This document shows, piece after piece, positions 4,487 to 34,128 of a stretch of DNA of 64,000 nt (the first letter of the stretch is position 1; each line of letters opens with the position of its first letter). The position numbers were made by a program, and so were the translations under genes. The notes beneath the pieces are model-generated. The model was given only the letters and a program-made list of their open reading frames with translations. It was not told where the DNA came from and did no database searches. The DNA lies in NCBI GenBank assembly GCA_046081125.1, contig JBJTVH010000040.1, positions 109-64,108 of the forward strand. The letters run 5' to 3'. The stretch comes from Acidimicrobiales bacterium (GTDB lineage Bacteria; Actinomycetota; Acidimicrobiia; Acidimicrobiales; Ilumatobacteraceae).

Positions 4487-4538
4487 CCACGCAGCGACCT
4501 CCAACGACTGCAGAGGGTCGATAACCTCCGCAACAGCC

Positions 4539-6689
4539 ATGGCCGACCGCCCCGTGTTCAACGACCGCTACGAGGTCCACAGCCGCATCGGCCGAGGCGG
4601 GATGGCCGACGTGTTTCTGGCCCGGGACCGCCTGCTCGACCGGCCGGTCGCAGTCAAGGTGCTCTTCCCGGAATACGCGACCGATCCGAGTTTCGTGGAG
4701 CGGTTCCGCCGCGAGGCGCAGTCCGCAGCGAACCTCAACCATCCCAACGTGGTCGGCGTCTACGACTGGGGCCGCCAGGGCGGCACGTACTTCATCGTGA
4801 TGGAGTACGTGAACGGTCGCACCCTCGCCGATCTGCTGCGCGCCGACGGCCCACTGGGCGCCCAACGGGCCGCCGAGGTCGCGGCCGACGTGGCCAACGC
4901 ACTCGGTTTCGCCCACCGATCGGGTGTGGTTCACCGCGACGTGAAACCCGCCAACATCCTGATCGCCACGTCCGGCGCGGTGAAGGTGGCGGACTTCGGC
5001 ATCGCACGAGCCCTGAACTCCGCCACGGAGCAGGACCTCACTCAGGTCGGCGCAGTGATGGGCACGGCCACCTACTTCTCGCCCGAACAGGCCCAGGGCG
5101 CCACGCCGGATCCCCGGTCGGACCTGTACTCGCTCGGCATCGTGATGTACGAGATGCTCGCCGGCCGGCCGCCCTTCACCGGCGACAACCCCGTGGCCAT
5201 TGCGTACCGCCAGGTCCACGACCAACCGCGGCCACTGTCGCAGGTGCAGCCCAACGTGCCCCGCCCGTACGAGGCGATCACCACCAAGCTGCTCTCGAAG
5301 AACCCCGCCGACCGTTACCCCTCGGCCGACGACCTGCGCGCCGACCTGCAGCGCTTCCGGGACGGCCAACCGGTGCTGGCCGCAGGCGCCGGACCCGTCT
5401 CCGGCGGCCCAGGTGTGGCAGCAGGTGCAGCCGCCGCCGCGACGGCGCCGACTCCGGTCACCCGGCCGGCCGATGCGCCGACCGTTGCAACACCGGCTGC
5501 GGTCGCCCCCACGCAGGCAGTCCGTCCGGTCGCCACCCCGGCCCAACGAGAGCAGTACGCGCAGGTGGCCCGGCCCGCCGACGGCGGTCAGTTCTCCGGC
5601 GGTCGTGTCCCCCCCTCGAGGCCACCGGTCGACGACGATCGCGGCCGGGGCGGCGCCGGCTGGTGGGTGACGGGCGGCCTGGTCGCCGTCGTGCTCATCG
5701 GCATCGGCGCGTTCCTGCTCCTGCGAGCGCTCAACGACACCGAGACGACCCCGGCCGACTTCATCACCGTGCCCGACGTTCGTCTGAAGACCCGGGACGA
5801 AGCCCGCGACCTCGTCGTGCGCGCCGGCCTCCAGTACAAGGAGGAGGCGCAAGCGACCGACAGCGTCCAGCCGGGTCTGGTGTGGGATCAGCGCCCTGCC
5901 CGCGGGAACCAGGTGCTGCGCAACGACACGGTCACGGTCGTCTACAACCCGTCCAAGCAGACGGTCGCACTGCCCTCGCTGGTGGGCACGACCAAGGACC
6001 AGGCGGTGCAGATCCTCGCCAGCCTCGGCTTGAAGGCGCAGTTCAAGGACGCCGAGAGCCCGGACCGTCCGGCGGGCACCGTGCTCGCCCAGGATCCGGC
6101 GCCCGGCGACGTCCCGGCCGGCGCGACAGTCACGATCACGGTCTCCGTGGGCAAGGGCAAGGTGACGGTCCCGAACGTGCTCAACCTCGATCAGGCGGTC
6201 GCCAGCAATCAGCTCGGGGCAGCGGGGCTCGTCGCCAAGGTGGCCCCGGAGGCCTCACCGACCGTCCCGACGGGTGCGGTCATCCGGACCGAGCCACCGG
6301 TGGGAACCGAGGTCGACAAGGGCTCGGCGGTCACCCTCGTGGTGTCGAGCGGGCCCGCCCCCGTCGAGGTGCCCAAGCTCGTGGGCCTCACCGAGTCGGC
6401 GGCCCGAGACAAGCTGCAGGAGTTGGGCCTCAAGGCGTCGGTCACCACGACGGACGTGCCGAACGGCTCCGAACAGGCCGGCAAGGTGATCCTCCAGGGC
6501 ACGCCCGAGACCACCAAGGTGCCGCCGGGGTCGACGATCACGCTCACGGTCGGCAAGGCGCTCCCGCCGACGACCACGACCACGACCACGATCGCCACGA
6601 CCACCACGACCACCACCACGACGGCGCCGACGACGACCACCACGGGCGGCACCACGACGACGACGCAGGCGAAACCGCCGACGCCCTGA
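4539..6689 (+). CDS. pknB: Ser/Thr protein kinase with four extracellular PASTA domains
   Basis: Hanks kinase motifs GRGGMADVF...VAVKVL, HRDVKPANILI, DFGIAR, GTATYFSPEQA. One TM segment (WWVTGGLVAVVLIGIGAFLLL). Four PASTA repeats. Poly-Thr C-terminal tail. Confidence 0.95.
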   Translation: MADRPVFNDRYEVHSRIGRGGMADVFLARDRLLDRPVAVKVLFPEYATDPSFVERFRREAQSAANLNHPNVVGVYDWGRQGGTYFIVMEYVNGRTLADLLRADGPLGAQRAAEVAADVANALGFAHRSGVVHRDVKPANILIATSGAVKVADFGIARALNSATEQDLTQVGAVMGTATYFSPEQAQGATPDPRSDLYSLGIVMYEMLAGRPPFTGDNPVAIAYRQVHDQPRPLSQVQPNVPRPYEAITTKLLSKNPADRYPSADDLRADLQRFRDGQPVLAAGAGPVSGGPGVAAGAAAAATAPTPVTRPADAPTVATPAAVAPTQAVRPVATPAQREQYAQVARPADGGQFSGGRVPPSRPPVDDDRGRGGAGWWVTGGLVAVVLIGIGAFLLLRALNDTETTPADFITVPDVRLKTRDEARDLVVRAGLQYKEEAQATDSVQPGLVWDQRPARGNQVLRNDTVTVVYNPSKQTVALPSLVGTTKDQAVQILASLGLKAQFKDAESPDRPAGTVLAQDPAPGDVPAGATVTITVSVGKGKVTVPNVLNLDQAVASNQLGAAGLVAKVAPEASPTVPTGAVIRTEPPVGTEVDKGSAVTLVVSSGPAPVEVPKLVGLTESAARDKLQELGLKASVTTTDVPNGSEQAGKVILQGTPETTKVPPGSTITLTVGKALPPTTTTTTTIATTTTTTTTTAPTTTTTGGTTTTTQAKPPTP

Positions 6690-6708
6690 CGCCCTCACCG
6701 GCGTGGGC

Positions 6709-7284
6709 TCAGGCCGGTGCAGCCAACGCCAGGAAGTTGCGCAGCAGTTGATGCCCGCCCACGGTCAGGATCGACTCCGGGTGGAACTGCACGCCCTCGA
6801 TCGGCAGCTCCCGGTGGCGCAGGCCCATGACGAGGCCGTCGTCGGTCTCGGCGGTGATCTCGACGCAGTCGGGCACGCTCGCCCGATCGACGACGAGCGA
6901 GTGGTAGCGGGTGGCCTCGAGCGGATCGGGCAGCCCGCGGAACACCCCGACGCCCCGGTGACGAACCAGGGAGGTCTTCCCGTGCATCAGCGCCGGCGCC
7001 CGCACGACCCGACCCCCGAAGGCCTGCCCGATCGCCTGGTGCCCCAGGCAGACCCCGAGGATCGGGATCCCGGCCGCGGCCGGAATGAGCGCCGGCACGA
7101 TGCCGGCATCCTCCGGTCGACCCGGCCCGGGTGAGAGCAGGATCGCGTCGGGCGCAAGGGCGAGCGCCTCCTCGACGCCGAGCGCATCGTGGCGGTGCAC
7201 GATCGGCTCCACCCCGAGCTCCCCGAGGTATTGCACGAGGTTGAAGACGAACGAGTCGTAGCAGTCGACCACGAGTACGCGCAC
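6709..7284 (-). CDS. trpG: glutamine amidotransferase component II (anthranilate / aminodeoxychorismate synthase)
   Basis: Class-I GATase motifs [24 protein letters not shown] (catalytic Cys), GVQFHPES. I prefer GTG 7284 ([12 protein letters not shown]...), the typical N-terminus. The ORF-track ATG at 7443 adds 53 non-homologous-looking residues. Confidence 0.85.
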
Positions 7285-15921: not shown

Positions 15922-16382
15922 TCGACTTCTCCCGCACCTTCCACACCGGCATCCGAGTGCCCGACATCCGCGCCGCGATGGCCGAGCTGTCCGACCAGCT
16001 CGGCGTCACCTGGGCGGCGCTCCAGGAGCGGGACCAGGCCGTGTGGACCCCGGAGACCGGGCTGGTGACCACCCCGCTCAAGTTCACCTACTCCTGCGAG
16101 GGGCCGGTGCACCTCGAGCTTCTCCAGGGTCAACCCGGCACCTACTGGTACGGCGCCGACGCACCGGGCCCGCACCACATCGGGGTGTGGGTCGACGACG
16201 TGAAGGCCACCACCGAAGCCGCCGTCGCCGCCGGATGGACGCTGCTGTCGGCCGGGGCGCCGCCCGAGCAGGGGTACGGAGCGTTCACCTATGTCCGCTC
16301 CCCGCAGGGAGTCATCGTCGAACCGGTCTGGAGCGCAGTCATCCCGGCGTTCGAACGCTGGTGGGCGGGCGGCTCGCTGTGA
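15918..16382 (+). CDS. VOC (glyoxalase/bleomycin-resistance fold) family protein
   Basis: GTG 15918 overlaps the trmH-like stop (GTGA). FHTGIRVPDI... and HHIGVWVDDV are typical paired beta-alpha-beta-beta-beta module signatures. Confidence 0.7.
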   Translation: MIDFSRTFHTGIRVPDIRAAMAELSDQLGVTWAALQERDQAVWTPETGLVTTPLKFTYSCEGPVHLELLQGQPGTYWYGADAPGPHHIGVWVDDVKATTEAAVAAGWTLLSAGAPPEQGYGAFTYVRSPQGVIVEPVWSAVIPAFERWWAGGSL

Positions 16383-16774
16383 GCATCCAGGTCACCACCG
16401 GCGCGGCGCTCGTGTGCAGCTTCGGGATCGCGCCGTCCACGCTCACCGTCGTGCCGACCGGTCCCCCCGTGATGGCCGGCGGAGCGCCGGCCGCCACCGT
16501 GCAGGACAACAAGCCGATGGCCAACGTCGCTCCGTTCGGCATGTGCACCACCCTCACCAACCCGCAGGTCGCCGCGGCCACCTCCGCGGCGCTCGGCGTG
16601 CTCACGCCGCAACCGTGCCTCCCGGTCACCACCGCGCCGTGGACCCCGGGGTCGACCTCGGTGCTGATCGGCGGCCAGCCGGCCCTCGGGTCCACCTGCA
16701 CGCTGCTGTGCCAGTGGGGCGGCACGATCACCATCACCGCACCGGGCAGTGCCACCACGGTGATGACCGGCTGA
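16379..16774 (+). CDS. DUF4280 (PAAR-like spike-tip) protein
   Basis: GTG 16379 overlaps the VOC stop (GTGA). 131 aa with DUF4280-type pattern ...GAALVCSFGIAPSTLTV...NVAPFGMCTTLTNPQVAAATSAALGVLTPQPC.P......W.PGS..VLIGG.PAL...C.LLCQWGG.ITI. Confidence 0.8.
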   Translation: MSIQVTTGAALVCSFGIAPSTLTVVPTGPPVMAGGAPAATVQDNKPMANVAPFGMCTTLTNPQVAAATSAALGVLTPQPCLPVTTAPWTPGSTSVLIGGQPALGSTCTLLCQWGGTITITAPGSATTVMTG

Positions 16775-16902
16775 CCCGCAGCAGCCCGGACCCGCCCGGC
16801 CGGTGGACGCACCGGGGTGTGTCAAGATGCCGGCCGCCGTTGGTCGACGCCGCTGCGGAGGGTTCGGATGCCTGGACGGAGTGCCGTCGTGAAGGTTCCG
16901 TC

Positions 16903-17523
16903 GTGAAGATCCCCGTGTTCGTCCATGCCGATGATCCGGTCCTGCAGGCCGGGGTCACGGCGCTCTTGCGTGGTCGCCCCGAGGCGACCGTGGTCGAGGC
17001 CACCGACCTCGACACGGCCCGCGTGGTGATCGTCGCGGCCGACGACGTCGACGAGCCGACCGTTCGCACCGCTCGGGCGTTGCAGCGCAACGGCTCGATG
17101 CGGCTGGTGCTCGTGATCACCAACCTCGGCGACGCGGCGCTGCTGGCCGGGATCGGTGCGGGCGCCTGCGGGTTCGTGCGCCGATCGGAGGCCACCCCCG
17201 AGCGCCTCGGTGCGGTCGTGCGCAGTGCCGCGTCGGGAGACGGTGCCGTGCCACCCGACCTGCTCGGGCGCCTGCTCGAACACATGAGCTCCGTGCAGAG
17301 CTCGATCCTCGAACCCCGCGGGCTGTCGCTGTCGGGCCTGTCGGAGCGAGAGACGACGGTCCTGCGGCTCGTGGCCGAGGGGCTCGAGACCTCCGAGATC
17401 GCCGAGCGGTTGTGCTTCTCCGAGCGCACCGTCAAAGGCGTCATCCACGAGGTGACGACCCGGCTGCGGCTGCGCAACCGGGCCCAGGCCGTCGCCTACG
17501 CCGTGCGGCAGGGCCTGATCTGA
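16903..17523 (+). CDS. LuxR/NarL-family regulator with atypical receiver-like N-domain
   Basis: GTG 16903. C-terminal HTH LSERETTVLRLVAEGLETSEIAERLCFSERTVKGVIHEVTTRLRLRNRAQAVAYAVRQGLI. The N-terminal 120 aa are receiver-like. Confidence 0.85.
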   Translation: MKIPVFVHADDPVLQAGVTALLRGRPEATVVEATDLDTARVVIVAADDVDEPTVRTARALQRNGSMRLVLVITNLGDAALLAGIGAGACGFVRRSEATPERLGAVVRSAASGDGAVPPDLLGRLLEHMSSVQSSILEPRGLSLSGLSERETTVLRLVAEGLETSEIAERLCFSERTVKGVIHEVTTRLRLRNRAQAVAYAVRQGLI

Positions 17524-20297: not shown

Positions 20298-23200
20298 TCA
20301 CGGCGGCGCCACGGACATGTTCGGCTCCGGCGCCGCGGGCGACTCCGAGGAGCCGTACTCCGACGCCGTGCCGTCGACCGCGGCCCGGCCGACGCCCGAG
20401 AGCACCCGGGCGATCGTGCTGCGGTAGGCGAGCCAGCGGGCATGGTTCGCCATCTGCGCCGACATCGCCTCGATGGCCGAGGCGCTGTGGGCGAGGTTCG
20501 CCTCCTGCCGCAACGCCGTGAGCAGGCTGGTCGACTGCTGGGTGACGGCGGCGAGCGCCGCTTCGGCATCGGCCCGGATCGCCGCATCCACGACACCGCG
20601 ATCGGCGCGCACCTTGATGCTCTCGAATCGGGTCACCAGGTCGGCGAACACGCCTTCGGCCGGGCCCTCGAAGCCGACCTCCGCCATACGTCGGCCGTAC
20701 TTGCCGATGCTGCGGAACGCGTCCGCAAGCTGTCCCGGGTTGACGGCGTGGTGCAGTTCCTCCACCGCGTGACGGATCTTGGGGATCTGGTCGATCACCG
20801 AAGACATCCGATCGACGGCGGACATCGGTGCGCCGAGCGGTCCGATCCCGCCGGGTGGCTCGTACAGGCCTCGCTCGGTCACGTAGCGCCGGGTGCCGCC
20901 GCTGGTGAAGTAGCCGCCCTCCTCGGCGGCGTTGATCATCGACTGCCGCTCGACGATCGACTCGGCCACCCGGGCCTGCGCGGCGGTATCCCCGGACCGG
21001 CAGGCCTCGACGAGTTGCTGCTGAAGGGCGTCCACCTCGTGCGACAGCGCGTTGGCCTGCGTCGCGTTCATCACCGACACCCGCCGCACCGGGATCCCGG
21101 CGGCATCCATCTGGGCGCGCAGCGCAGCGACCGCCGCCTCGTCGCCGGCCTGCTGGGCCATCTGGAGCTGCGAGTTCATGACCATCACCTGCTGCGAGGC
21201 CGCCGTGCGCCGGGCGATGTCCTCCCGCAGCGCATCGGGCACCACCTCGGTGAAGGCCCGCATGCGGGCGGCGTCGGTGAAGAAGTCGTTCTTCAGCAGC
21301 CGGTTCAACCCTCCGGGCCCGGTCCCGGCTCGCTCGGCCAGGAACAGCCGCGCCCGGTCACGGTTCTCGGCAGCGAAGGTGCCGTAGGTGGAGATGTCGA
21401 GGTCGTTCTTGAACGACCCGCGCGATCCGGTCGCTTCGAGCAACGGCTGACCCTCGGCGATCCCCTCCCGTCGCAGCCCGTTCGGCGCCCAGTTCAGGAG
21501 ATCCCCGTAGAGCACTTCGCGCCAGGCCACGAGCGCCTTGCCGGTCTCGGACTCGTTGCCGAGCACCGACGACAACATCGTCCATCCCCCGGCCTGGTCG
21601 AGCAGGCCCTTGGGGCCGAGGGCGGCGAGCCCGTCGCGCGCCGCCGCCTCGGCCGCAGCACCCCGCAACTTGCCGCTCGCGATCAACGCCACCCGCTGAC
21701 CGACCGAGCGCGACACCGCCGCGCCGGCCCCGGAGGCACCCGCCTCGACGCCCTCGCGGGCGAGCAACTCCTGGTAGGCGAGCACCTGCCGGCCCGCCGC
21801 CGAGTCCCGCCCGACCGCGGTGAGCAACTCCTCGGCGCTCTTCCCCGACAGGCGCATCGCCTCGGGCACCCCGACCTCGCCGATCCCGCGCGCCAGCACC
21901 TCGGCGGCGTTGGGCGGAAGCGCACCCCGCCCGATCTCGGCGAGCGCGGCGGCCCCCATGCGCTCTTGCGCCGCTCGGGTGACGCCGCGCTCGGCAAACA
22001 ACGCGCGGCCGCGCCCCACACTCTGGAAGCCGTCCAGGAACGCGAAGACCGTATCGAGGATCGCTGCGACGAGCGCCGCATCGGCCTGCCCCTGTGAAAC
22101 GAGCGCCGTCTCCGGTGACGTCGAGGCCCGGGCTGCGACCGCAAGGTCCTCCCACTGCTCCCAACTGCGCGCCGCCATGCTCGCACTGGTGGCCACGCCG
22201 CCGACGAGCGCCACGGTGGCCAAGCCGCCGCTCGCGATCTCGGCGACCACGAACAACGCGCCCGACAGCACGCCGCCGCCGATGGCGAGCAGGGTCTGCA
22301 TCCCCTCGTGGTCGCCGATCACGCCTTGGCCGATGGTGCGGTAGAAGCGGCCCTGCTCGGCGTAGAGCTGGCCGTGGATGGGCTGCAGGTCCCGCCAGTC
22401 GAGGTCGCCGGAATCGATCTTCGGCTGGGTTTCGCGGATCTTGGTCTCGGTCTCGCGCAGCTGGGTGGCCATCTCGGTGCGGGCCTGCTGTGGGCTGGCC
22501 TGCGCCAGGGCATCGACCCGGTTGTCACGTATGGCGAGATGCACGGTCGGCGACATCGCCGAATACCCCGTGAGGACCGCCTGAACCCTGTCCCAGTTGG
22601 TCTTCACCGCGTCCCAGCTCGAGAACCCCGGCTCGGTCGAGGCACGGGTCGGTTGGGTGTTCGGATCGAAGCGGGACACCACCTCGTCGGGTCCGAACGA
22701 GGGCATGTCGCTGTAGTTCGGAATCGTGTCGTAGCCGACCGGGATCTCCCGCAACCCAGCGGCGAACTGCTGGGCCCGGCCGACCTCGACGAGGATCTGC
22801 TGCACGAACGCGAGCCGGTCGTCCTGGTCGTTGCGGACCGCTTCGTTCGGCGCCGACGCCTCCAACCCCATCGCCTCGATCTCGCCGTGGACGCTCGTGA
22901 GGTTCCGGGCCATGTAGTCCCGGGCCCGCTGCTTGGTGTCGTTCTCGAACCGGGTCCGCAGCGCCGCCACAGCGCCGATCGAGTGCAGCTCCGCGCCCCG
23001 GGCGATGCACCCCTCCCACAGCGCGAAGTTGGCCTCGGCCACGCCCTGGATTCCGGCGCCGAAGCTGTCCCAGATCCGCTCCATCGCCGACTCGTCGAGC
23101 GGACCGGCCCAGCCCTGGTTCGAGAGCATCGACAACGCTCGGATCCGTTCCGGTTGACTGAACGACCCCCACGACATGATGTCCTTGAGGGGTCCGACGT

Positions 23201-23471
23201 CGTCGAGGGTGATCGCCCGGTCGTAGCGGCTGCGGTCGGTCTCGGCCGCCCGCTCCAACGGGGCGGCGAGCTGCTCGTCGGTGATCCGAGCGACGAACGT
23301 CCCGGCGGCCTGGTTGCCCGCGAGCCGCTGCACCCGACCCACCATCGCTGCGGCCATGCCGGCCGGTGCGGCCGGATCGAGGACCGGCGGGGCACCCTCC
23401 GGCGACCGGCCGGCGGTGCGCGCCGTGCGAGCCGGTGCCGGTTCCGCCGCCGGCCGCGCCCGCTGCGTCAC
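20298..23471 (-). CDS. large (1057 aa) CIS-associated orphan protein; candidate cargo/effector or structural extension
   Basis: GTG 23471 overlaps the stop of the gpI-like gene (GTGA). The N-terminus has MVGRVQRLAGNQAAGTFV. Central hydrophobic hairpin LLAIGGGVLSGALFVVAEIASGGLATVALVGGVATSA. The remainder is Ala/Glu/Arg/Gln-rich and looks helical. No family recognised. Confidence 0.75.
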   Translation of the reverse strand: MTQRARPAAEPAPARTARTAGRSPEGAPPVLDPAAPAGMAAAMVGRVQRLAGNQAAGTFVARITDEQLAAPLERAAETDRSRYDRAITLDDVGPLKDIMSWGSFSQPERIRALSMLSNQGWAGPLDESAMERIWDSFGAGIQGVAEANFALWEGCIARGAELHSIGAVAALRTRFENDTKQRARDYMARNLTSVHGEIEAMGLEASAPNEAVRNDQDDRLAFVQQILVEVGRAQQFAAGLREIPVGYDTIPNYSDMPSFGPDEVVSRFDPNTQPTRASTEPGFSSWDAVKTNWDRVQAVLTGYSAMSPTVHLAIRDNRVDALAQASPQQARTEMATQLRETETKIRETQPKIDSGDLDWRDLQPIHGQLYAEQGRFYRTIGQGVIGDHEGMQTLLAIGGGVLSGALFVVAEIASGGLATVALVGGVATSASMAARSWEQWEDLAVAARASTSPETALVSQGQADAALVAAILDTVFAFLDGFQSVGRGRALFAERGVTRAAQERMGAAALAEIGRGALPPNAAEVLARGIGEVGVPEAMRLSGKSAEELLTAVGRDSAAGRQVLAYQELLAREGVEAGASGAGAAVSRSVGQRVALIASGKLRGAAAEAAARDGLAALGPKGLLDQAGGWTMLSSVLGNESETGKALVAWREVLYGDLLNWAPNGLRREGIAEGQPLLEATGSRGSFKNDLDISTYGTFAAENRDRARLFLAERAGTGPGGLNRLLKNDFFTDAARMRAFTEVVPDALREDIARRTAASQQVMVMNSQLQMAQQAGDEAAVAALRAQMDAAGIPVRRVSVMNATQANALSHEVDALQQQLVEACRSGDTAAQARVAESIVERQSMINAAEEGGYFTSGGTRRYVTERGLYEPPGGIGPLGAPMSAVDRMSSVIDQIPKIRHAVEELHHAVNPGQLADAFRSIGKYGRRMAEVGFEGPAEGVFADLVTRFESIKVRADRGVVDAAIRADAEAALAAVTQQSTSLLTALRQEANLAHSASAIEAMSAQMANHARWLAYRSTIARVLSGVGRAAVDGTASEYGSSESPAAPEPNMSVAPP

Positions 23472-26427: not shown

Positions 26428-28158
26428 TCAGTTGAGCTGGATCGGTTGACCGGACACCCGCACCGGGCCCGACCCGCTGACGGCGACTTGACCGCCGTCG
26501 AGATCCAGGTTCGATTGGGCCTTGACCTTCACCGATCGCCCGGACAGCTCGAGGGTGCCGGTGGCCTCGACGGTCACATCGCCCCGGGCGGAGATCTTCA
26601 CGTCGCCGTCGCTCTGCACGGTCAGGCTCTTGCCCGCTTGGTCGAGACGGATCGAGATCGCACCGTCGCCAGTTCGCAGTTCGATCCCCTCGGTGCCGCT
26701 CGCGTCGACGAAGACGAGTTGGTGGCCGGTGCGAGACGTGAACAGACGGTTGTTGACCGCGCCGTTGCCCGAGTCGAGCAGCTGGCCCGGGCCGGTCACC
26801 GCTTTGTCCTGGCCGTTGTAGAGCCCGCCGAGCACGTAGGGGTGGTTCATGTCGCCCTGCTCGAACGCGACGAGGACCTCGTCGCCGACCTCGGGCAGCA
26901 ACAGCCAGCCGCGGTCGGCACCTGCGCCGGCGTGACTGACCCGGGACCACACGCTCACGAACTGATCGGCGAGCCACGGGAAGCGCAGGCGCACCCGGCC
27001 GAGTTGGTCCGGGTCGTCGACGTCGTCCACGACGGCCGGCACGACGCCGGCGATCCGGGTCGACCCCCCATCACCCCCGCCGGTGAGCCCGAGCAGCGAG
27101 CGGGCCTCCCGGCCCGACACGGTGAACAGCGTCCGATACCCCTCGGTCGGGTCGTACCGGTGCGTGGTGGAGGTCAGCACGTACGTGCCGTCGAAGGGCG
27201 CGCCGGCGAGCGCTAGTCGCACTGCCGCACCGGCCCGCAACTTGGGATCGCCGTGCGCGATCCCGTCGATCTCGGCGAAGCTCGCCGCCACGTGCTCGGC
27301 GAGCGCCCGCGCGGCCGCGTCGGCGGCCCCTGCGTTGCGGATCGGCGGATCGACGGCGACCAGGGGCGGGCCCTTGAACAGGCCCGCGAGTTCGGCCGGC
27401 GTGTGGCCGTTGGCGATCGTGACGGTGCGGGCCGGCGCCGTCGCCGTGATCGCCCGCTTGTCGAGCGGGTCCCATCCCCGTACCTCGACCTGCTCGACCT
27501 GTTCGGCCGCGGTCACCGCGGCCCGAAGCTCGACCAGGTTGCCGCCCACCGTCAGCGTGAGCGGATCCTGGCTCGAGAGGTCGGCCTGCCCGGGTGCCCC
27601 CTGCGACGTCGACGGGGGTCGGAAATGGAGGCGGCCGTCGCTCACGAGCACCTCGTTGCCGACCTCCCGGGCCAGGCGACGAAGGAACTCCCAATCGTTC
27701 TCACTGGCCTGCGTGACATGCGGGTGGGTCGAGTTGGTCGCCACGATGTCGCCCGACCGGAGATGGTGCCGGTCGGCCACCTTCCGAGCGATGTCGGCAT
27801 AGGTGACGTTGACGTAGCTCTCCGTGATGCGGCCGTGGAACAACCGGTGGGACTCGTCGTAGCCCCGCACGACCGTGTAGCTGGTCCCGGCGTGGATCTC
27901 GGCCTCCAGCGCCGTGATCTCCCCTTCGATGAGCGGCTCGCCGGCGGGATGCGCGTCGTTGATCACCACCACCTTGAGCTTCGCCCCGATACGAGCCCCC
28001 ATGCGCTCGACGGCGTTGCGCGCCGGATCCTTGAGCGTGATCGAGAACGAATCCGGCAGGTGGAGGTGGTCCTCGACTTCCACCTCGACGATGTCGACGC
28101 CGTCGACGCGCGAACCGCCCACGCTGATCGCGAGGTTGTTGGACGGTTGCGCGGGCAC
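26428..28158 (-). CDS. VgrG / phage late control gpD-like spike-hub protein (Afp8-like)
   Basis: 576 aa. gpD-like N-domain (...SFSITLKDP...TVVRGYDESHRL...NDWEFLRRLAREVG). gp5-OB-like middle (RVRLRFPWL...SVWSRVSHAGAG). C-terminal beta-helix repeats. Confidence 0.9.
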   Translation of the reverse strand: MPAQPSNNLAISVGGSRVDGVDIVEVEVEDHLHLPDSFSITLKDPARNAVERMGARIGAKLKVVVINDAHPAGEPLIEGEITALEAEIHAGTSYTVVRGYDESHRLFHGRITESYVNVTYADIARKVADRHHLRSGDIVATNSTHPHVTQASENDWEFLRRLAREVGNEVLVSDGRLHFRPPSTSQGAPGQADLSSQDPLTLTVGGNLVELRAAVTAAEQVEQVEVRGWDPLDKRAITATAPARTVTIANGHTPAELAGLFKGPPLVAVDPPIRNAGAADAAARALAEHVAASFAEIDGIAHGDPKLRAGAAVRLALAGAPFDGTYVLTSTTHRYDPTEGYRTLFTVSGREARSLLGLTGGGDGGSTRIAGVVPAVVDDVDDPDQLGRVRLRFPWLADQFVSVWSRVSHAGAGADRGWLLLPEVGDEVLVAFEQGDMNHPYVLGGLYNGQDKAVTGPGQLLDSGNGAVNNRLFTSRTGHQLVFVDASGTEGIELRTGDGAISIRLDQAGKSLTVQSDGDVKISARGDVTVEATGTLELSGRSVKVKAQSNLDLDGGQVAVSGSGPVRVSGQPIQLN

Positions 28159-28161
28159 CGC

Positions 28162-28839
28162 TCAGCTCCCCGAGGGCACGACGAGGCGGCGGCCGGGCCG
28201 GACGCGCAACGGATCGTCGATGTCGTTGGCCCGGGCGATCTCCCGCCATCGGGTCGGGGTGCCGAGCAGTCGGGTGGCGACATGGGCGAGCCGTTCGCCA
28301 CCGTCGAGCTGATGCAGGGCCATCGCCTCGATCGCCCCCGAGGTGGGGTTCTGGCGCGGCGGAACGACGGCCAGCACCTCCTCGAGCGTGAGGGTCACCA
28401 CGGCGCGAATCGCCTGACCCGACGACGCGAACCGGGTGTACTTCACCGCAACGGTCTTCACCGTTGCGCAGTGGACGTAATCGGTGCCGCCCCAGGAGAA
28501 CTTGGCATACGGCGCGACCGGCTTGTTCTGGTCGCCCCCCTTGATCGGCATGACCGCGGCCATCAGCTTCGCCGCCACCTCGACGACCGCCGGGGCGTCC
28601 TTGCCGTCCTCGGACCGGTCGAGGAACATCTCGATGGTGATGGTGCCGCCCTTGGCGCCGTTGTACTCCGGCGGCGCCGGCGTCTTGCCGTTCTTCGGCT
28701 TCCACTCGGCCGAGCGCTGCACGGTGAACTCCTTCGGGTTGAAGGAGAACTCGAACTTTGCGATCTCGTCGCCGAGTCCCCGGCCGCCGTTGGCCGGCTT
28801 GTGCAACGTGAGGGAGGCCTTCGCCAGCTTGCCGTCCAT
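28162..28839 (-). CDS. tube-initiator-like protein with C-terminal LysM (Afp7 / P2 gpX-like)
   Basis: 225 aa. C-terminal LysM: HQLDGGERLAHVATRLLGTPTRWREIARANDIDDPLRVRPGRRLVVP. Confidence 0.85.
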   Translation of the reverse strand: MDGKLAKASLTLHKPANGGRGLGDEIAKFEFSFNPKEFTVQRSAEWKPKNGKTPAPPEYNGAKGGTITIEMFLDRSEDGKDAPAVVEVAAKLMAAVMPIKGGDQNKPVAPYAKFSWGGTDYVHCATVKTVAVKYTRFASSGQAIRAVVTLTLEEVLAVVPPRQNPTSGAIEAMALHQLDGGERLAHVATRLLGTPTRWREIARANDIDDPLRVRPGRRLVVPSGS

Positions 28840-28843
28840 CGCC

Positions 28844-29281
28844 TCAGAACCCCTTGTCCTCGTACTCGAACCCGTGGTGGGCCAACTCCAGGGTTTCGGT
28901 CGCCACCTTCGCCGACTCCGCGTTGAACGACGGGCCCGTCCAGCGCACCGGGATCACCCCGGTGAGACTCCACGAGGCCAGGTCGCGACCCTCGGCGTCC
29001 TTGGCCGTGATGCGACCGGTCTTGCGGGTGACCTTGCCCCCCATCGACGAGAACCACTTGGCGACCTTGGCGCTCGAACGGTCGAGCGGTCGGGTGAGCT
29101 TGATGTTCGTGTACTTCACGCGCACCGGGAGCTGGTGGACGAAGGTGTTGTTGCCACCCTCCTCGCGCTGCTCGACCACGACCTCGGCCCCGAGGCCGTC
29201 GCACTGGGTGAACGCGCCGAGTTCAACGCCGTCGATCTCGACGCTGAAGTAGAGCTGGATTCCCGGATCGCCGTCGGCCAT
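28844..29281 (-). CDS. phage tail tube protein (T4 gp19-like; Afp5-like paralogue)
   Basis: 145 aa. F.VEIDGV..G.F..C.GL..E.....EGG.N.....LP.R.KY.NI.L.R... is the pattern of eCIS tube proteins. Confidence 0.9.
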   Translation of the reverse strand: MADGDPGIQLYFSVEIDGVELGAFTQCDGLGAEVVVEQREEGGNNTFVHQLPVRVKYTNIKLTRPLDRSSAKVAKWFSSMGGKVTRKTGRITAKDAEGRDLASWSLTGVIPVRWTGPSFNAESAKVATETLELAHHGFEYEDKGF

Positions 29282-29291
29282 CGATCTCCCC

Positions 29292-31514
29292 CTACCGCCG
29301 GGTCCGCGTCAGCGAGCCGGCCCGCTCCCGGTCATGGCGCAGTTCCTGCTTGAGCAGCAGCCGCATGCGCCCGTAGAGGCGCTTGGCCAATTCGTCGAGT
29401 TCCGCTCCCGACGCAGCGGCGGCCCCGCTGCTCGCCCCGGATCCTCCGGCCGTCGCCGCGCCCCCGCCCGGTCCCCCGTCGGCCTCCCGCTGGACCGGTT
29501 CGTCGTCGGCCGGGGCGTCGAACACGACAGAGCCATCGGCGTGACGTTGCGCCACTCCCGAGGCCACGGCGACGGCACCGGCATCGACCCACGACCCGGA
29601 ATCGGGCGCCGCAGGCGTCGACCCGCCTCGCCAGTCGAGCGAGGCTGCGTTTGCGCGTGCGACCGGCGCGCCGGACAGGACGGCACGCTGCACGGACGGT
29701 CGGTCCGGCGTCGAGGTCGGCGACGCACCTCCAAGCGAACTGGACATGGCGCCCGAGGACGCCGCCGCGGGTGCCACGCCATCGGCAGCCGGCACGGGCC
29801 GCACGCTCGATGCCACCGGCCGATCACCGAGCAGCGCCGCCGTCAGCGGACTATCGCTCGCCATGCGCTGCAACGGCCCTGCTGGCTCGATCGCGTCGAG
29901 CACGGCATCGGCGCTCGACGCCGCCGGGTTCGCCTCCGGCATTGCGTGGCGCTGGACGGGCAGCGGGGCTGCGACCGGGCTCGTCCCCTCGGTGGGCCCG
30001 TCGAATATTGCGCCGGAGAGTGGCGAGCCCGCCCCTGCGGGCGCCTGCGGCCGACGGTCACCGAGCAGCGGGGCGACGGTCGCCGATTCGGCGGTCGTGC
30101 CCGGCTCGCCGGACACGATTGTCGGCCCGGACACGATTGTCGGCCCGGACTCGACCGACGTCCCCGGTACCTCCACTGCGCCGGCAAGATCCGCAACGCC
30201 TCGGGCGGTCGGTGTCCCAGGTGCCGGTAGCCCAGGTGCCGGGGGTACCGATGGCAACGGTGCGCCGAGACCGACCCGACGCGTCGGAACAACCGCCGCC
30301 CCCTCGGTACGTCGCTGCACCACCGGCCCGGCACCGCTTAGGTCGGGCCCCGCCGTCGACGAACCACCAGACCCCGACCGGACCGGCAACGACCCAGCAC
30401 CGAGCACCGGTGCAACCGAGGTCGCGTCCGAACCCGACGCAGGCCCCGCAGCACCGGCGCCGATCAGCGAGCCCGGGATCGGCGCCGGGTCCTGCGCCGG
30501 ACCCGACGATCCCCCGCTGCCCGACGATCCGTCGGCGGCACGACTCACGACCGGTCCGCCCAGGCCGGGGCGACGTGCCGCCGAAGCAGGCGACTCGACC
30601 GGACCCACGCGAGGCGGGGCGCCGGCATCACCCGACCCGTGCTCAGGCGCATCACCTGATGCGCGACCGGCCCCGACGAGCGGCGCCACCGCCGCGGGGT
30701 CATCACCGGCCCCGACGAGCGACGCCGGTTCGCCTGATCCGTCGCCCAGCGGATCGACCGGTAGCTCGACGGGGAGCAAGGCCGATGGCACGGCCGAGCC
30801 GTCGGCTGCCGCTTCGGTCACGGCGCGGCGCTGTACCGACGGCGTCGGGCCCTCCGAGGCCCGAGCCGGAGCCGGCTCGGCCGGCGGCGACACCACGGAC
30901 CCCGTCGGCAGCGCCAGGTCGTCACGGGAGTCGAGACGATCAGCCCAAGCGGACGCCGGCCCTTGCAGCCCAAGGGACGCTGCGTCGGGCACCGTGGCGG
31001 GTTCTGCTGACACCGGCGACGGCTCGGCCGGCGTCGGTTCGCGCACGGCCGTCACCGGCACGGAACGACTCGGCATGGCGACGACCGGCGCAGGACGACG
31101 AGGGCCGTCCAGCGCAACCACGCGCTGGACGGGCGGTCCCGCCGACGGCCCAGGTGCAGCGCTCTGACCCACGTTTCGCCCCTGCGCGACGCGTGCCTCG
31201 GCATCGCGATGCGCCCGGGCGAGCACGAGACCGGCCGGGGCGTCGCTCGACACGGCGTGATCGAGTTGGCGCAACACCAGCGGCGACTGCCACGAGGCCA
31301 AGGACCGGTCGAATCGCCGGTGGACCACCGGCTCGATCGGTGACACCACCGCCGGCATGGCCGGCAGGGTCGTCCAGTCGGCACGCACGGCGCCGCCGAG
31401 CGGCGAGCCCTCGTGCGTGCCGGCGGGCGACCGATCCTGGTCCGGCTGCTCGGCGGCCGGCGAGGCGCCGTCCGCGGCGCCGGTTCGCGCCCGCAACCAG
31501 TCGAACAGGCCCAT
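29292..31514 (-). CDS. Pro/Ala/Gly/Ser-rich low-complexity protein in the tape-measure position
   Basis: 740 aa; ATG 31514. Eight [V/L/A]QR motifs and six L[LVI]G[AD][GR] motifs are spread through a low-complexity body. The charged helical C-terminus is ELDELAKRLYGRMRLLLKQELRHDRERAGSLTRTRR. It lies between the chaperone-like genes and tube2/LysM/VgrG. Confidence 0.7.
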   Translation of the reverse strand: MGLFDWLRARTGAADGASPAAEQPDQDRSPAGTHEGSPLGGAVRADWTTLPAMPAVVSPIEPVVHRRFDRSLASWQSPLVLRQLDHAVSSDAPAGLVLARAHRDAEARVAQGRNVGQSAAPGPSAGPPVQRVVALDGPRRPAPVVAMPSRSVPVTAVREPTPAEPSPVSAEPATVPDAASLGLQGPASAWADRLDSRDDLALPTGSVVSPPAEPAPARASEGPTPSVQRRAVTEAAADGSAVPSALLPVELPVDPLGDGSGEPASLVGAGDDPAAVAPLVGAGRASGDAPEHGSGDAGAPPRVGPVESPASAARRPGLGGPVVSRAADGSSGSGGSSGPAQDPAPIPGSLIGAGAAGPASGSDATSVAPVLGAGSLPVRSGSGGSSTAGPDLSGAGPVVQRRTEGAAVVPTRRVGLGAPLPSVPPAPGLPAPGTPTARGVADLAGAVEVPGTSVESGPTIVSGPTIVSGEPGTTAESATVAPLLGDRRPQAPAGAGSPLSGAIFDGPTEGTSPVAAPLPVQRHAMPEANPAASSADAVLDAIEPAGPLQRMASDSPLTAALLGDRPVASSVRPVPAADGVAPAAASSGAMSSSLGGASPTSTPDRPSVQRAVLSGAPVARANAASLDWRGGSTPAAPDSGSWVDAGAVAVASGVAQRHADGSVVFDAPADDEPVQREADGGPGGGAATAGGSGASSGAAAASGAELDELAKRLYGRMRLLLKQELRHDRERAGSLTRTRR

Positions 31515-31517
31515 GGC

Positions 31518-31664
31518 TCAACGACCTTGGGCGAGTCGCTCCGCCTCGGCCACGAACCGGCGCCGCAGCGGGTGTTCGAGGTCGAGGATGTCGTCGAGCG
31601 GCCAGTGGTAGTGGAAGGCGAGGAACGCCGCTTCCCGGTAGAGCCGGTCCGAGGCGTTCCTCAC
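31518..31664 (-). CDS. small conserved-looking CIS ORF (48 codons), absent from the ORF track
   Basis: GTG 31664 overlaps the upstream stop (GTGA). It translates VRNASDRLYREAAFLAFHYHWPLDDILDLEHPLRRRFVAEAERLAQGR. TGA at 31520..31518 lies 3 nt before the ATG of the next gene. The composition is protein-like and not Arg/Pro noise. It resembles short proteins I recall from actinobacterial CIS loci (possibly DUF6760, unverified). Confidence 0.55.
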   Translation of the reverse strand: MRNASDRLYREAAFLAFHYHWPLDDILDLEHPLRRRFVAEAERLAQGR

Positions 31665-32122
31665 GGTTCCCCCAGGCGACCACCGGCCAGGTCGACCGTC
31701 AACTCGTGCTTGCAGGCGGGGCAGACCACCCGGGCCCGCGTGTGGCCCTCGGTGTTGATGCGGCGGTAAAGGTCCTGCAGGAAGGCCAGATCGGTGGCGA
31801 AGAGCCCTTCGATCGTCCCGGCGTGGACGTCGGTGATGGTCCCGAGCCGTTCGATGACCCGGGCGAGCAACACGACGGTCAGATAGGCGGGATTCTCGCG
31901 GACCCGGTCGTCGAGCAGGGGCACCAACTCGTCGCGGGCGGTGGCCAGACGCATCACCCCGTCCCGGTGGAGGCGCCCGCCGCTGTCCACGTACCCGCGC
32001 GGCAGCACGAACGTGAACTCCGTACGCAGCTCGTAAGGCTCCTCGCGCGGCGCCGGTGCCGTCGGCGAACCCTCCTCGGGCCCGTCGGCACCACCGGACG
32101 CAGACGCGAAGGACCGCCGCAT
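31661..32122 (-). CDS. tail-assembly-chaperone-like protein with C-terminal CxxC (Afp6-position)
   Basis: ATG 32122 shares one nucleotide with the tube1 stop (TGATG). 153 aa: ...YELRTEFTFVLPRGYVD..G.LHRDGVMRLATARDEL...NPAYLTVVLLARVIERLG...VVCPACKHELTVDL. It occupies the P2 gpE position. Confidence 0.65.
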   Translation of the reverse strand: MRRSFASASGGADGPEEGSPTAPAPREEPYELRTEFTFVLPRGYVDSGGRLHRDGVMRLATARDELVPLLDDRVRENPAYLTVVLLARVIERLGTITDVHAGTIEGLFATDLAFLQDLYRRINTEGHTRARVVCPACKHELTVDLAGGRLGEP

Positions 32123-32565
32123 CACTCGGGCTGCAGGGCTTCGTACGTGATCACGAGCTTCTCGGTGACCACGCTGGTGTCGCCAGCCTTCAGCGTGCCG
32201 AGCTCGAGGCTCTTGGGCCATGCAGCCGTCAGCTTGTACCGCTTGATCGCCACGCCCTCGTAGTCGTACACGATGATCGATCCGCCCTTGCGGGCGTCGT
32301 TCATCTTCCCGAAGTGGGCGGCCTTGATCCACTTCTCGAAGCTGCTGTCCGACGTGAGGGCCCGGGTGAGCGTGACCTCGCCGGCCTTGGGTCGGCCGGG
32401 GAGCTTCTTGTTGATGAACTTGCCGTCGGGCGAGTTGGCCTTCATCTCGATCGTGTCCTGCTCGATCTTGAGGCCGCTCACCTCCTGGATGTGCTTGATC
32501 ACGATGCCGTCGATCTCCAGACCGAAGGAGTGGCCGACGGCGCCGTCGAGATCAGGGAGCGCCAT
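32122..32565 (-). CDS. phage tail tube protein (T4 gp19-like; Afp1-like)
   Basis: 147 aa. GHSFGLEIDGIVIKHIQEVSGLKIEQDTIEMK...GEVTLTRALT.D..F.KWI matches the eCIS inner-tube family. Confidence 0.9.
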   Translation of the reverse strand: MALPDLDGAVGHSFGLEIDGIVIKHIQEVSGLKIEQDTIEMKANSPDGKFINKKLPGRPKAGEVTLTRALTSDSSFEKWIKAAHFGKMNDARKGGSIIVYDYEGVAIKRYKLTAAWPKSLELGTLKAGDTSVVTEKLVITYEALQPE

Positions 32566-32604: not shown

Positions 32605-34128
32605 TCACTCGGCGAGCGCGGCGCCGCCGGAGAACTGGGACAGGCGGAAGATCACGAACTCCGCCGGCTTGACCGGCGCCACGCCGATCTCGCAGATGAG
32701 CTGGCCGAGGTCGACCGACTCCGGCGGGTTCGTCTCCCGGTCGCACTTCACGAAGAAGGCCTCGTCGGGCGTGAGGCCGAACAACGCGCCCTTGCGCCAC
32801 TCATTGGTGAGGAACGCCGAGATGGTGCGCCGCACCCGGGCCCACAGCGCATCGTCGTTCGGCTCGAACACCACCCACTGGGTGCCGTTGAGGATCGACT
32901 CCTCGAGGTAGTTGAACAAGCGCCGCACGTTCAGGTAGCGCCACTCGGGATCGCTCGACAGCGTGCGCGCACCCCACACCCGGATCCCCCGACCGGGGAA
33001 CGACCGGATGCAGTTCACCCCGATCGGGTTCAACAGTTCCTGCTCGCGCGACGTGAGGCTGCAGGCGAGGTCGACCACACCGCGCACCACCTCGTTGGCC
33101 GGCGCCTTGTGCACCCCCCGGGTGTCGTCGTTGCGACCCCAGATCCCGGCCACGTGGCCCGACGGCGGCACGAAGACGTTGGCGTTCACGGCCGGGTCGT
33201 ACACCTTGATCCAGGGCCAGTAGAGCGCGGCGTACTTCGAGTCGTACCCGGCGACGTCGGTGCGCCAGTTGGCGACCTTCTGCGGGTTTAGATCGGGCGG
33301 CGGGTCGAGGACCGCCACCCGGTCGCCCATCAGCTCGCAGTGGGCGATCATCGCCAACTGCACGGCCTTGACCCCTTCGAGCGTGAGCAGACCCTTCTGG
33401 TAGGCCGCCATCACGTCGGGGACGCACACCATCGTGATCTCGTCGATCGCCTCGAGGCCACCGAAGCCGGTGCGGTCCGCCGCGTCGCCGATGTAGTCCG
33501 ACGGATCGAGCTTGGCCGGGGTGGCCGAGGCCGCACCCCCGGCAAGGGCGACGGTGCCGTTGGCCGGCCGGATGGCGGGTGCACCGGCCACCTCCGCGAG
33601 TTCGATCAGCTGGCTCGCGCTCTTCAGCACGGTGACCGCGCTCTGCTTGCCCCGACCGCTGGTGAGGTTGTCGTGCTCCTCCACGACGCGGCCGTCGCGC
33701 TTGACCACGAGCTTGAAGGCCTCCTCGCCCCCCTCGCTCGCATCGGTGACCTCGACGCTCAGGCCGTCGCCGGTGGGACCGGCCTCCAGCGCCCGCACCG
33801 AGTAGCGGGCCTTGCTCCCGTCGCCGAGCGCACCGAGGATCCCCTGAGCATTCGGGGCGGCACCACCCGCTCCGACCCGGACCACGAAGCAGTTGCCGCC
33901 ACCGTTGAGGAAGTAGCCGTAGACGGCGTGGGCCAGGTAGCCGTCACCGGTGAAGTCGCCGAAGGTGTCGACGAACTGCTTCCAGTTCGACACCAGGGTG
34001 GGGGTGTTGGCCGGGCCCCGGGCGGCAAGGCCGACGAAGGCCGCCACCGCCGTGCCGACGCCCTCGATGGGCGCCGAGCCGGACGGCTTTTCCTCCACGT
34101 ACACACCGGGCGAGAGATAGGTAGGCAT
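32605..34128 (-). CDS. contractile tail sheath protein (Afp2/3-like)
   Basis: 507 aa. Hallmark N-terminus MPTYLSPGVYVEE. Conserved C-terminal sheath domain (...VNCIRSFPGRGIRVWGARTLS.DPEWRYLNVRRL...). Confidence 0.95.
   Translation of the reverse strand: MPTYLSPGVYVEEKPSGSAPIEGVGTAVAAFVGLAARGPANTPTLVSNWKQFVDTFGDFTGDGYLAHAVYGYFLNGGGNCFVVRVGAGGAAPNAQGILGALGDGSKARYSVRALEAGPTGDGLSVEVTDASEGGEEAFKLVVKRDGRVVEEHDNLTSGRGKQSAVTVLKSASQLIELAEVAGAPAIRPANGTVALAGGAASATPAKLDPSDYIGDAADRTGFGGLEAIDEITMVCVPDVMAAYQKGLLTLEGVKAVQLAMIAHCELMGDRVAVLDPPPDLNPQKVANWRTDVAGYDSKYAALYWPWIKVYDPAVNANVFVPPSGHVAGIWGRNDDTRGVHKAPANEVVRGVVDLACSLTSREQELLNPIGVNCIRSFPGRGIRVWGARTLSSDPEWRYLNVRRLFNYLEESILNGTQWVVFEPNDDALWARVRRTISAFLTNEWRKGALFGLTPDEAFFVKCDRETNPPESVDLGQLICEIGVAPVKPAEFVIFRLSQFSGGAALAE

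Follow-up and report, generated by a model that had tools for sequence, protein, structure and literature searches.

How does a contractile injection system (CIS) set the length of its tube when its gene cluster seems to hold no tape measure? Homologues of afp14 were found to be 'generally absent' from lineage II of these systems, where unexplained subtype-specific genes exist (Chen et al. 2019, PMC6899500), and the clusters of Streptomyces coelicolor and S. lividans have been stated to be without a tape-measure gene (Casu 2023, 2025; Nagakubo 2023; PMC10066040, PMC12237407, PMC10286715). The particles of S. coelicolor are uniform, 268 nm long with 60 tube layers (PMC12237407, PMC10066040). 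The same question is raised by a 64,000-nucleotide stretch of an Acidimicrobiales bacterium (Ilumatobacteraceae; GenBank GCA_046081125.1, contig JBJTVH010000040.1, positions 109 to 64,108), here called the window, whose own coordinates are used throughout. Its CIS operon has, at the place where tape measures are usually encoded, a gene for a 740-amino-acid (aa) protein dominated by Pro, Ala, Gly and Ser (PAGS):

29292..31514, minus strand: gene in the tape-measure slot, encoding a 740-aa, PAGS-rich, mostly disordered protein (frame, congener, and homologues in the same slot in 78/80 loci).

Is this protein the missing ruler? We lean towards seeing in it an unrecognised, disordered tape-measure equivalent of the CIS. 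This view draws on gene order, the pattern of conservation, disorder and a scaling estimate; docking, a location in the lumen and control of length would follow by analogy with lambda gpH (with gpG/GT) and the tape measures of extracellular contractile injection systems (eCIS).

Is there a gene here at all? The frame needed proof because its GC content at third codon positions (GC3) is low and an 870-aa open reading frame (ORF; 29651-32263, plus strand) lies opposite, antisense to the slot gene and to the DUF6760 and chaperone genes before it. In the window, which has a GC content of 70%, GC3 of 29292-31514 is 0.79 vs 0.90-0.93 in the sheath, tube, VgrG and baseplate J genes, and its first and second positions stand at 0.80 (GC1) and 0.67 (GC2). 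These values produce near-symmetric codon-position signals on both strands, which invites gene calls on the wrong strand. With GC1 as high as GC3 the frame plot is ambiguous, and this ambiguity, together with the long antisense ORF, is what could make 29292-31514 a chance open frame in GC-rich DNA or a shadow of its antisense partner. That explanation is already refuted and keeps practically no weight. Translation of the window gives 740 codons free of stops, with a composition (A 138, P 95, G 94, S 81; PAGS 55%) that agrees with the Pro/Ala/Gly/Ser-rich protein described in the first-pass annotation. In a genome of the same genus (the congener), whose protein is 51% identical, 645 codons of the frame stay open, and the nucleotide differences (0.35, 0.30 and 0.51 by codon position) fall mostly at third positions. 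The islands conserved between the two are the N-terminal domain, the VQR motifs, APLLGDR, GLGAPLPSVPP and the block of residues 641-670. Both ends of the protein are conserved across classes of Actinomycetota, and the gene is translationally coupled to its neighbours: the stop of the chaperone gene overlaps the DUF6760 start, the DUF6760 stop lies 3 nt ahead of the ATG of 29292-31514, and the tube initiator starts 10 nt past its stop. Judged from these comparisons, the frame is under purifying selection and 29292-31514 is a real gene, with conserved ends and a fast-evolving middle.

What does the neighbourhood say about function? On the minus strand the operon runs sheath, tube, a 146-aa protein, a 48-aa protein, 29292-31514, gp19-type tube initiator, CIS_tube plus LysM, VgrG, gp25, baseplate J and a P2 gpI-like protein, and a Pvc16-type terminator and an AAA+ ATPase on the plus strand converge on it. 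The genes around the slot are these:

32605..34128, minus strand: sheath, Cis2 (PF04984, PF17482).
32122..32565, minus strand: inner tube, Cis1 (PF06841, E 1.8e-28).
31661..32101, minus strand: 146-aa protein resembling tail-assembly chaperones, whose C-terminus bears a zinc-ribbon-like CPAC motif (match to the 'tail assembly chaperone' family PHROG 508, E 1.3e-6).
31518..31664, minus strand: small DUF6760 protein, 48 aa (PF20546, E 1.7e-7).
28844..29281, minus strand: tube initiator, Cis5, with a GGGGAG ribosome-binding site (PF06841, E 6.6e-35; NCBIfam CIS5_fam, E 1.3e-20).
28162..28839, minus strand: CIS_tube plus LysM, Cis7 (PF19266, E 2.2e-19; the LysM match is weak).
26428..28158, minus strand: VgrG-like spike/hub, Cis8 (PF04717, PF05954).

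The synteny on which the tape-measure position had been proposed is thus confirmed, with a chaperone homologue and DUF6760 upstream and the tube initiator, LysM and VgrG genes downstream. From the tail-assembly-chaperone homologue immediately before the slot a tape-measure partner is to be expected. The placement between chaperone and hub or tube-initiator genes, which is that of tape measures, recurs in the same order in 78 of 80 loci.

These loci were gathered by anchoring on the conserved tube initiator Cis5, and the 80 that were fetched come from Streptomyces, Kitasatospora, Amycolatopsis, Micromonosporaceae, Frankiaceae, Nocardioides, Acidimicrobiia and others; the initiator of the window is 99% identical to that of an Acidimicrobiales metagenome-assembled genome from a lake (L005). 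In all but two of them a PAGS-rich ORF (0.45-0.65) lies just upstream of the tube initiator on the same strand, and a DUF6760-like motif just upstream of the homologue was seen in 52/63 loci. Among 54 curated members the length runs from 553 to 1470 aa and the count of hydrophobic-Gln-Arg motifs from 4 to 24. Why does such a family escape ordinary searches? A word-indexed search with the whole protein gave just two matches, because low-complexity words swamp the candidate list, and a whole-genome search of 61 relatives recovered the protein in only three genomes, because the middle evolves too fast. Using phmmer on 1.84 billion representative proteins, 146 matches were obtained, nearly all aligning only with residues ~640-740 or 16-145 and most of them with the C-terminal end alone. 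Conserved ends around a middle of variable length (553-1470 aa) are the classic layout of a tape measure.

The ends can be described closely. At the N-terminus the family consensus is W-R-x-LPPxQR...F..L..WQxPSFLxPLGHxV...APxG, in which W47 and L72 are invariant and F68, L84, H86, P93 and G95 at least 90% conserved (alignments A3 and A4). The window protein has all seven residues, and its LPPxQR is degenerate (LPAMPAV), the QR being lost. At the C-terminus the family consensus is DELxRxLYxPLxRRLKAELRLDRERAG, with L27, R33 and G35 of alignment A2 invariant; the window protein ends in ELDELAKRLYGRMRLLLKQELRHDRERAGSLTRTRR directly before the stop, which fits the family helix DELxRxLYxxLxxxLKxELRxDRERxG, placed at most ~10 residues from the stop. 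The middle of the window protein is likewise typical of the family (PAGS 0.55, 8 motifs, unalignable). The tape measure that systems of the Streptomyces type appear to be "missing" probably comes from this large unnamed actinobacterial family, whose ends are fixed and whose disordered middle varies in length. Within Streptomyces, the length of the protein in this slot varies about 3-fold, from ~530 to 1650 aa (L005-L084, L094-L100): homologues ending in ...LSRLLKAxLRLERERAGFLINTRH have ~530-1230 aa, and those with the coelicolor-type end ...RIIGRVTRLVRTELRMDRERIGRLRDPR have ~1100-1650 aa.

How is the protein built? The family alignments, a repeat search and AlphaFold2, run on a 34-sequence alignment, give the following layout:

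31215..31385, minus strand: conserved N-terminal domain, residues ~44-100 (alignments A3 and A4; phmmer matches to 16-145).
29595..31184, minus strand: disordered low-complexity middle, residues 111-640 (AlphaFold2, pLDDT mostly <50).
30109..30154, minus strand: 18-nt tandem duplication of 2.6 copies, encoding GPTIVSGPTIVSG (Tandem Repeats Finder).
29505..29594, minus strand: small ordered element, residues 641-670, WVDAGAVAVASGVAQRHADGSVVFDAP (pLDDT 85-94; helix 645-651 plus a hairpin).
29307..29414, minus strand: charged C-terminal helix, residues 701-736 (pLDDT 84-96; family consensus).

Mean pLDDT is 51, 464 of the 740 residues fall below 50, and no secondary structure is predicted for residues 111-644, in keeping with the earlier description of a mostly disordered protein; the alpha-helical or coiled-coil body of tape measures is not seen in the prediction. 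That description had also held that only the last ~40 residues form a helix. The C-terminal helix is indeed predicted, but it does not stand alone, as a helix at residues 3-11 and the element at 641-670 are ordered too. This element is conserved as G.A.R..DGSVVF, and 36-43 of the 73 orthologues have DGSV or SVVF. The C-terminal helix would, we infer, be the end that docks on the hub. The middle bears dispersed motifs (hydrophobic-Gln-Arg, PLLGDR and GLGAPL) and cannot be aligned outside the genus; the short direct repeat noticed at first is real, being the 18-nt tandem duplication, which is missing in the congener.

What are the motifs of the middle? Eight [V/L/A]QR motifs had been listed and all eight are there, at residues 129, 227, 399, 520, 548, 608, 655 and 674; they account for every QR dipeptide of the protein, and their number was reached in 0 of 20,000 shuffles. 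For L[LVI]G[AD][GR], five of the six copies proposed are strict, and the sixth (PVLGAG) begins with V and falls outside the strict form; the relaxed count of six was again reached in 0/20,000 shuffles. Words were then counted without bias over 73 family members:

VQR: observed 361, expected 7, in 72/73 members.
PLLG: observed 65, expected 1.6, in 45/73 members.
LLGD: observed 41, expected 0.6, in 26/73 members.

The single-copy blocks GLGAPL and G.A.R..DGSVVF are likewise enriched. Conservation of the motifs in orthologues, a check suggested at the outset, is therefore found for hydrophobic-Gln-Arg (VQR in nearly every member), which is 29-fold over expectation in the family vs 1.6-fold in other genes of the same loci. 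Its consensus is P-P-P-[V 55%, A 18%, L 16%, I 6%]-Q-R-[A/S]-[A/V]; family-wide, 42% of Gln precede Arg, vs an Arg frequency of 7%, and 6 of the 7 assessable copies hold their position in the congener. The LxGAG form of the second motif is specific to the lineage, and only the core PLLG[D/E] is found family-wide (45/73 orthologues). As a family feature, strict LxG[AD][GR], with 0-2 copies per orthologue, was dropped and replaced by PLLG[D/E]. Are the motifs periodic, as was first supposed? They are not: the spacings of [V/L/A]QR in the 740-aa protein are 98, 172, 121, 28, 60, 47 and 19 residues, and those of hydrophobic-Gln-Arg over the family are broad and aperiodic (median 53, interquartile range 27-85). 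Motif number and protein length correlate loosely among the curated members (r = 0.63).

The hydrophobic-Gln-Arg motifs could be binding sites for a chaperone, contacts with the lumen, or a signal shared with the leaders of cargo proteins. In one version of the tape-measure idea, which we think quite unlikely, a disordered ruler would be pinned to the lumen or to a coat of chaperone at irregular hydrophobic-Gln-Arg contacts, and length would come from that of the chain plus the layout of its motifs, and not from a rigid helix. Could the protein serve cargo instead? As a flexible tether for cargo loading, it would use through its motifs the putative receptor of LQRxAGNxAV leaders, in the lumen or on the Cis15 ATPase; cargo would be recruited or spaced inside the tube, with length control as a by-product. 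The motif is enriched 4-fold in LQRxAGNxA proteins of the same loci, between the values for the family and for other genes, but this figure is inflated, as the group was chosen by a QR-containing motif. Cargo leaders often have two or three copies (for example IQRLQRAAGNAAVSRLVAQRY), and ATPase-dependent loading via N-terminal leaders is established for PVC and AlgoCIS (preprint 10.64898/2026.05.27.728243). The context of the motif differs, however, being P-P-P-V-Q-R-A/S here and LQRxAGNxAV in cargo, and the conserved termini and the chaperone partner are explained less well by a tether than by a tape measure. Taken together, this makes the tether very doubtful.

Does S. coelicolor, whose particles have been measured, carry the gene as well? 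The published model of its CIS (CIS-Sc) contains nine proteins, and the family of the tape-measure slot is not among them (PMC12237407). The 'promoter region sco4248-49' has been printed with two annotated start codons that are divergent (Vladimirov et al. 2023, Suppl. Fig. 7). Its reverse complement (the strand of sco4248) encodes ...PPVQR...PPPVQRPP...FDPRQLT.FQLDELVHRIIGRVTRLVRTEL(R)MDRERIGR..., read from machine-read supplementary text with dropped letters, such that the reading jumps frame and the N-terminus of sco4248 is likewise broken. Compared with the C-terminal profile of the family using hhalign, the peptide with one letter restored gave a probability of 96.6% (E 5e-10), and the raw fragment an E-value of 6e-6. 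On this sequence evidence S. coelicolor apparently carries the family gene, with the annotated sco4249 GTG inside it and antisense; such a call would account for the gene having been overlooked and having been out of reach of mass-spectrometry searches. The P1/P2 fragment, taken as a 'divergent promoter', contains the 3' end of a coding gene. Among 5.8 billion clusters, a chimeric query in which the S. coelicolor C-terminal peptide alone was scored brought up no called protein (413-1314 aa) with this end, which fits gene callers missing the gene and is no proof of it; a 39-nt primer arm (Casu 2023) had no match in 401 Streptomyces genomes. The peptide itself was matched in 71 of 301 sampled Streptomyces genomes, in open frames mostly of 1080-1680 aa. 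Seven coelicolor-type examples are intact; they measure 1099-1470 aa with a PAGS fraction of 0.55-0.64, bear 9-24 hydrophobic-Gln-Arg motifs, share the N-terminal domain of the family and end in ...DELVHRIIGRVTRLVRTELRMDRERIGRLRDPR. If S. coelicolor has the gene intact, its ORF should have ~1100-1450 codons, start with V/M-GFLDRLRG and end in ...RMDRERIGRLRDPR.

Does the length of this protein fit the particle? For the length of the S. coelicolor gene, the seven intact relatives stand in together with G258, a genome of ~97% nucleotide identity, where the homologue occupies 4195 nt between DUF6760 and the stop (L093, G258:C1:8059500-8068400, nt 3087-7281). Set against the 268-nm particle, ~1400 residues give 0.19 nm per residue, and against a tube of ~231 nm 0.165, an indirect estimate from a single particle length. 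For eCIS tape measures, which are alpha-helical, a slope of 0.2156 nm per residue has been reported (PROCIS preprint 10.64898/2026.05.27.728243), and it would predict 1243 aa for S. coelicolor. The range of 0.17-0.19 nm per residue, from coelicolor-type proteins of ~1100-1470 aa and 268 nm, is ordinary tape-measure scaling, and the suggestion that the mechanism of length determination would depart from the helical ruler finds no sign of unusual scaling here. A fully stretched chain (740 aa over a 230-nm tube, 0.31-0.36 nm per residue) was considered and dropped, since coelicolor-type homologues have ~1100-1470 aa. For the window, 740 aa at 0.17-0.22 nm per residue predict a particle of ~120-160 nm.

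Is there another candidate for the ruler in the same cluster? One gene encodes a long helical protein:

20298..23357, minus strand: rival for the ruler role or probable cargo, 1019 aa, with an all-alpha fold predicted (GC3, motif, single-sequence AlphaFold2).

The start listed for this ORF (23720) is ~121 codons too far upstream, GC3 being 0.92 downstream of the Met chosen here vs 0.65 upstream of it. The protein begins with MAAAMVGRVQRLAGNQAAG and has an N-terminal VQRLAGNQAAG of the LQRxAGNxA type and, around residues 350-396, a hydrophobic hairpin. Its prediction is nearly all helix at low confidence (pLDDT 43); searches of Pfam, PHROG and the PDB gave no match. Were it the ruler, the 740-aa protein would be a core assembly factor or a resident of the lumen or hub, one that could, for example, serve as nucleus or plug of the hub and be the first to be ejected, with length set elsewhere. 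We hold this to be possible but somewhat unlikely. In the Afp operon, afp14 lies past the baseplate genes and ahead of the ATPase. The 1019-aa gene is placed in the same way, after the baseplate and gpI-like genes and before the ATPase; its predicted helices and hydrophobic hairpin resemble those of phage tape measures, its 1019 aa would give ~220 nm at 0.2156 nm per residue, and the disordered protein is without the structural hallmarks of a tape measure. LQRxAGNxA proteins, however, are accessory: they were found in 24 of 80 other loci (fetched flanks), on either strand and at varying position, whereas the disordered protein keeps its fixed position in nearly all loci.

What is then the 1019-aa protein? 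The SCO4254 orthologue of G258 (990 aa, N-terminal LASLQAAAGNRA) appears to be Sle1, from position and motif and not confirmed by sequence comparison. Sle1 is a packaged cargo, and deletion of Sle1/2 leaves particles without apparent defects (PMC13277306), which argues against a ruler role for the 1019-aa protein if Sle1 is its counterpart. Particle structure is also normal after deletion of sco4256-58 (PMC10066040). BLASTP of the 1019-aa protein against the SCO4254-58 orthologues of G258 found no similarity, and sequence homology with Sle1 could not be shown. Cargo is the more likely reading of the 1019-aa protein, by analogy of its leader motif, which matches that of the SCO4254 orthologue, and of the accessory class with varying position to which it belongs. 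The 740-aa protein, for its part, does not look like such cargo. Sle1 and Tme are helix-rich, tape-measure-related cargo of Streptomyces CIS, and Tme was reported as ~70% disordered (PMC13277306, PMC11126660); likeness to them lies in this disorder of Tme, in being encoded in actinobacterial CIS clusters and in a presumed location in the tube lumen. Both feature coiled coils, hairpins that span the membrane, effector domains and partners with DUF4157; in effectors of the Sle1 type (Nagakubo et al. 2026) the coiled coil is N-terminal, the hairpin belongs to a C-terminal helical domain and the DUF4157 partner is encoded next to them. The 740-aa protein has none of these: no body helices are predicted, it has no hydrophobic run, and no DUF4157 gene is adjacent in the window. 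Genes of the Sle1 type are accessory, whereas that of the 740-aa protein is core and fixed in position.

Several points weigh against a tape measure in the slot. All tape measures characterised so far are alpha-helical (preprint 10.64898/2026.05.27.728243), in contrast to the disorder predicted here, and a hydrophobic or transmembrane segment was not found in the protein, as its composition leads one to expect. It does not belong by sequence to any known tape-measure family: 34 family members had no match in Pfam or NCBIfam apart from spurious low-complexity ones, the window's protein had none in PHROGs, and profiles of the N- and C-terminal modules gave nothing meaningful against PDB chains. 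The ~3-fold length range within one genus (~530 to 1650 aa) needs an equal spread of particle length, which is undocumented. In tomography, the lumen of the sco4256-58 deletion mutant looked mostly empty (PMC10066040), so any chain residing there must be faint. The protein has never been reported from mass spectrometry of particles, which is expected if the search database lacks it. The helical 1019-aa protein sits at an Afp14-like position in the same cluster. Finally, the G258 homologue is spread over at least three frames; a stop seems to interrupt it in frame near nt 5828, and the frame changes again near nt 7080-7150. One of the lesions was inspected base by base, and there four G in a row stand where the frame needs five. 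These breaks look like long-read homopolymer errors in a gene rich in Pro and Gly codons, real decay being the alternative.

How does the candidate compare with known rulers? With Afp14, Pvc14 and Alg14, the tape measures of eCIS (Rybakova et al. 2015; PROCIS preprint), it shares a contractile injection system with a Pvc16-type terminator and an AAA+ ATPase, and the same role would be expected (a chain in the tube, anchored at the hub, whose number of residues sets length). The slope of these proteins (0.2156) is close to the coelicolor-type estimate of 0.17-0.19 nm per residue. They differ in having no detectable homology with it, in being alpha-helical where the protein here is disordered, and in the place of their genes, which follow the baseplate and fibre genes, whereas the slot here lies between chaperones and tube initiator. 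Phage tape measures (lambda gpH with gpG/gpGT; P2 gpT with gpE/E+E'; T4 gp29) are encoded in the same order of tube, chaperone or chaperones, tape measure and hub, and the likeness extends to an upstream gene of the PHROG 508 type, conserved termini and a variable middle. Unlike in these phages, no chaperone frameshift was seen here, and the protein, 55% PAGS, has no helical or coiled-coil body, hydrophobic segments or lytic domains. Is a ruler without helices conceivable? YscP and FliK reportedly are partly disordered and Pro-rich, with the number of residues setting tubular length at ~0.19 nm per residue. They offer a precedent for a non-helical ruler, but belong to the unrelated type III machine, have a C-terminal T3S4 switch domain and are exported through the growing tube without becoming part of it. 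No T3S4 domain was matched by Pfam in the 740-aa protein, whose context is a CIS and includes no type III system. The slot, the disorder and the conserved motifs of the first-pass annotation hold, and its periodicity fails.

How might such a protein act? In a first step, which is partly shown, the core operon would co-produce it with the tail-assembly-chaperone homologue and DUF6760, and these two would keep the disordered chain soluble, possibly by binding its hydrophobic-Gln-Arg and PLLGD motifs. The element at 641-670 and the C-terminal helix (701-736) would then dock where tube initiator, LysM tube protein and VgrG build the hub. Tube subunits would polymerise around the disordered chain, and growth would end at the conserved N-terminal domain, where the Pvc16-type terminator would cap the tube. 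At firing, the protein would exit with the contents of the tube.

Two other genes of the cluster recall Streptomyces systems. The first gene of the operon (34253 to ~36700, minus strand), directly upstream of the sheath gene, encodes a protein with a zinc-ribbon start, MNCERCGQ...CRNPSCNAYLDW, followed by a Pro-rich linker and by segments that resemble the 'LRVRNTG..VD' repeats of Sco4256/57 orthologues; then come one transmembrane helix and, last, six PASTA domains (E 1.4e-55). This protein may act like CisA as an adaptor to membrane and cell wall, with an outer part that binds peptidoglycan. Beside the terminator gene, 16291-17523 (plus strand) encodes a protein whose C-terminal part, judged by eye, resembles a LuxR-type response regulator, and the place of the gene is reminiscent of SCO4263, which regulates the S. 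coelicolor cluster.

What would the finding mean? Four papers on Streptomyces and lineage-II CIS deny a tape-measure gene despite uniform 268-nm particles, and the conserved, unannotated family offers a concrete candidate. If a disordered ruler of the pinned kind described above were true, it would be a ruler principle undescribed for phage-tail-like machines, and it would account for the tape measure that Streptomyces CIS seem to be 'missing' as well as for the wrong annotation of SCO4249. Should the candidate fail, the hydrophobic-Gln-Arg motifs would still call for an explanation. Should it hold, contractile tail-like machines would have their first disordered tape measure, the mass-spectrometry data already published would need to be searched again against the corrected sequence, and particle length and cargo capacity could be tuned through the gene.

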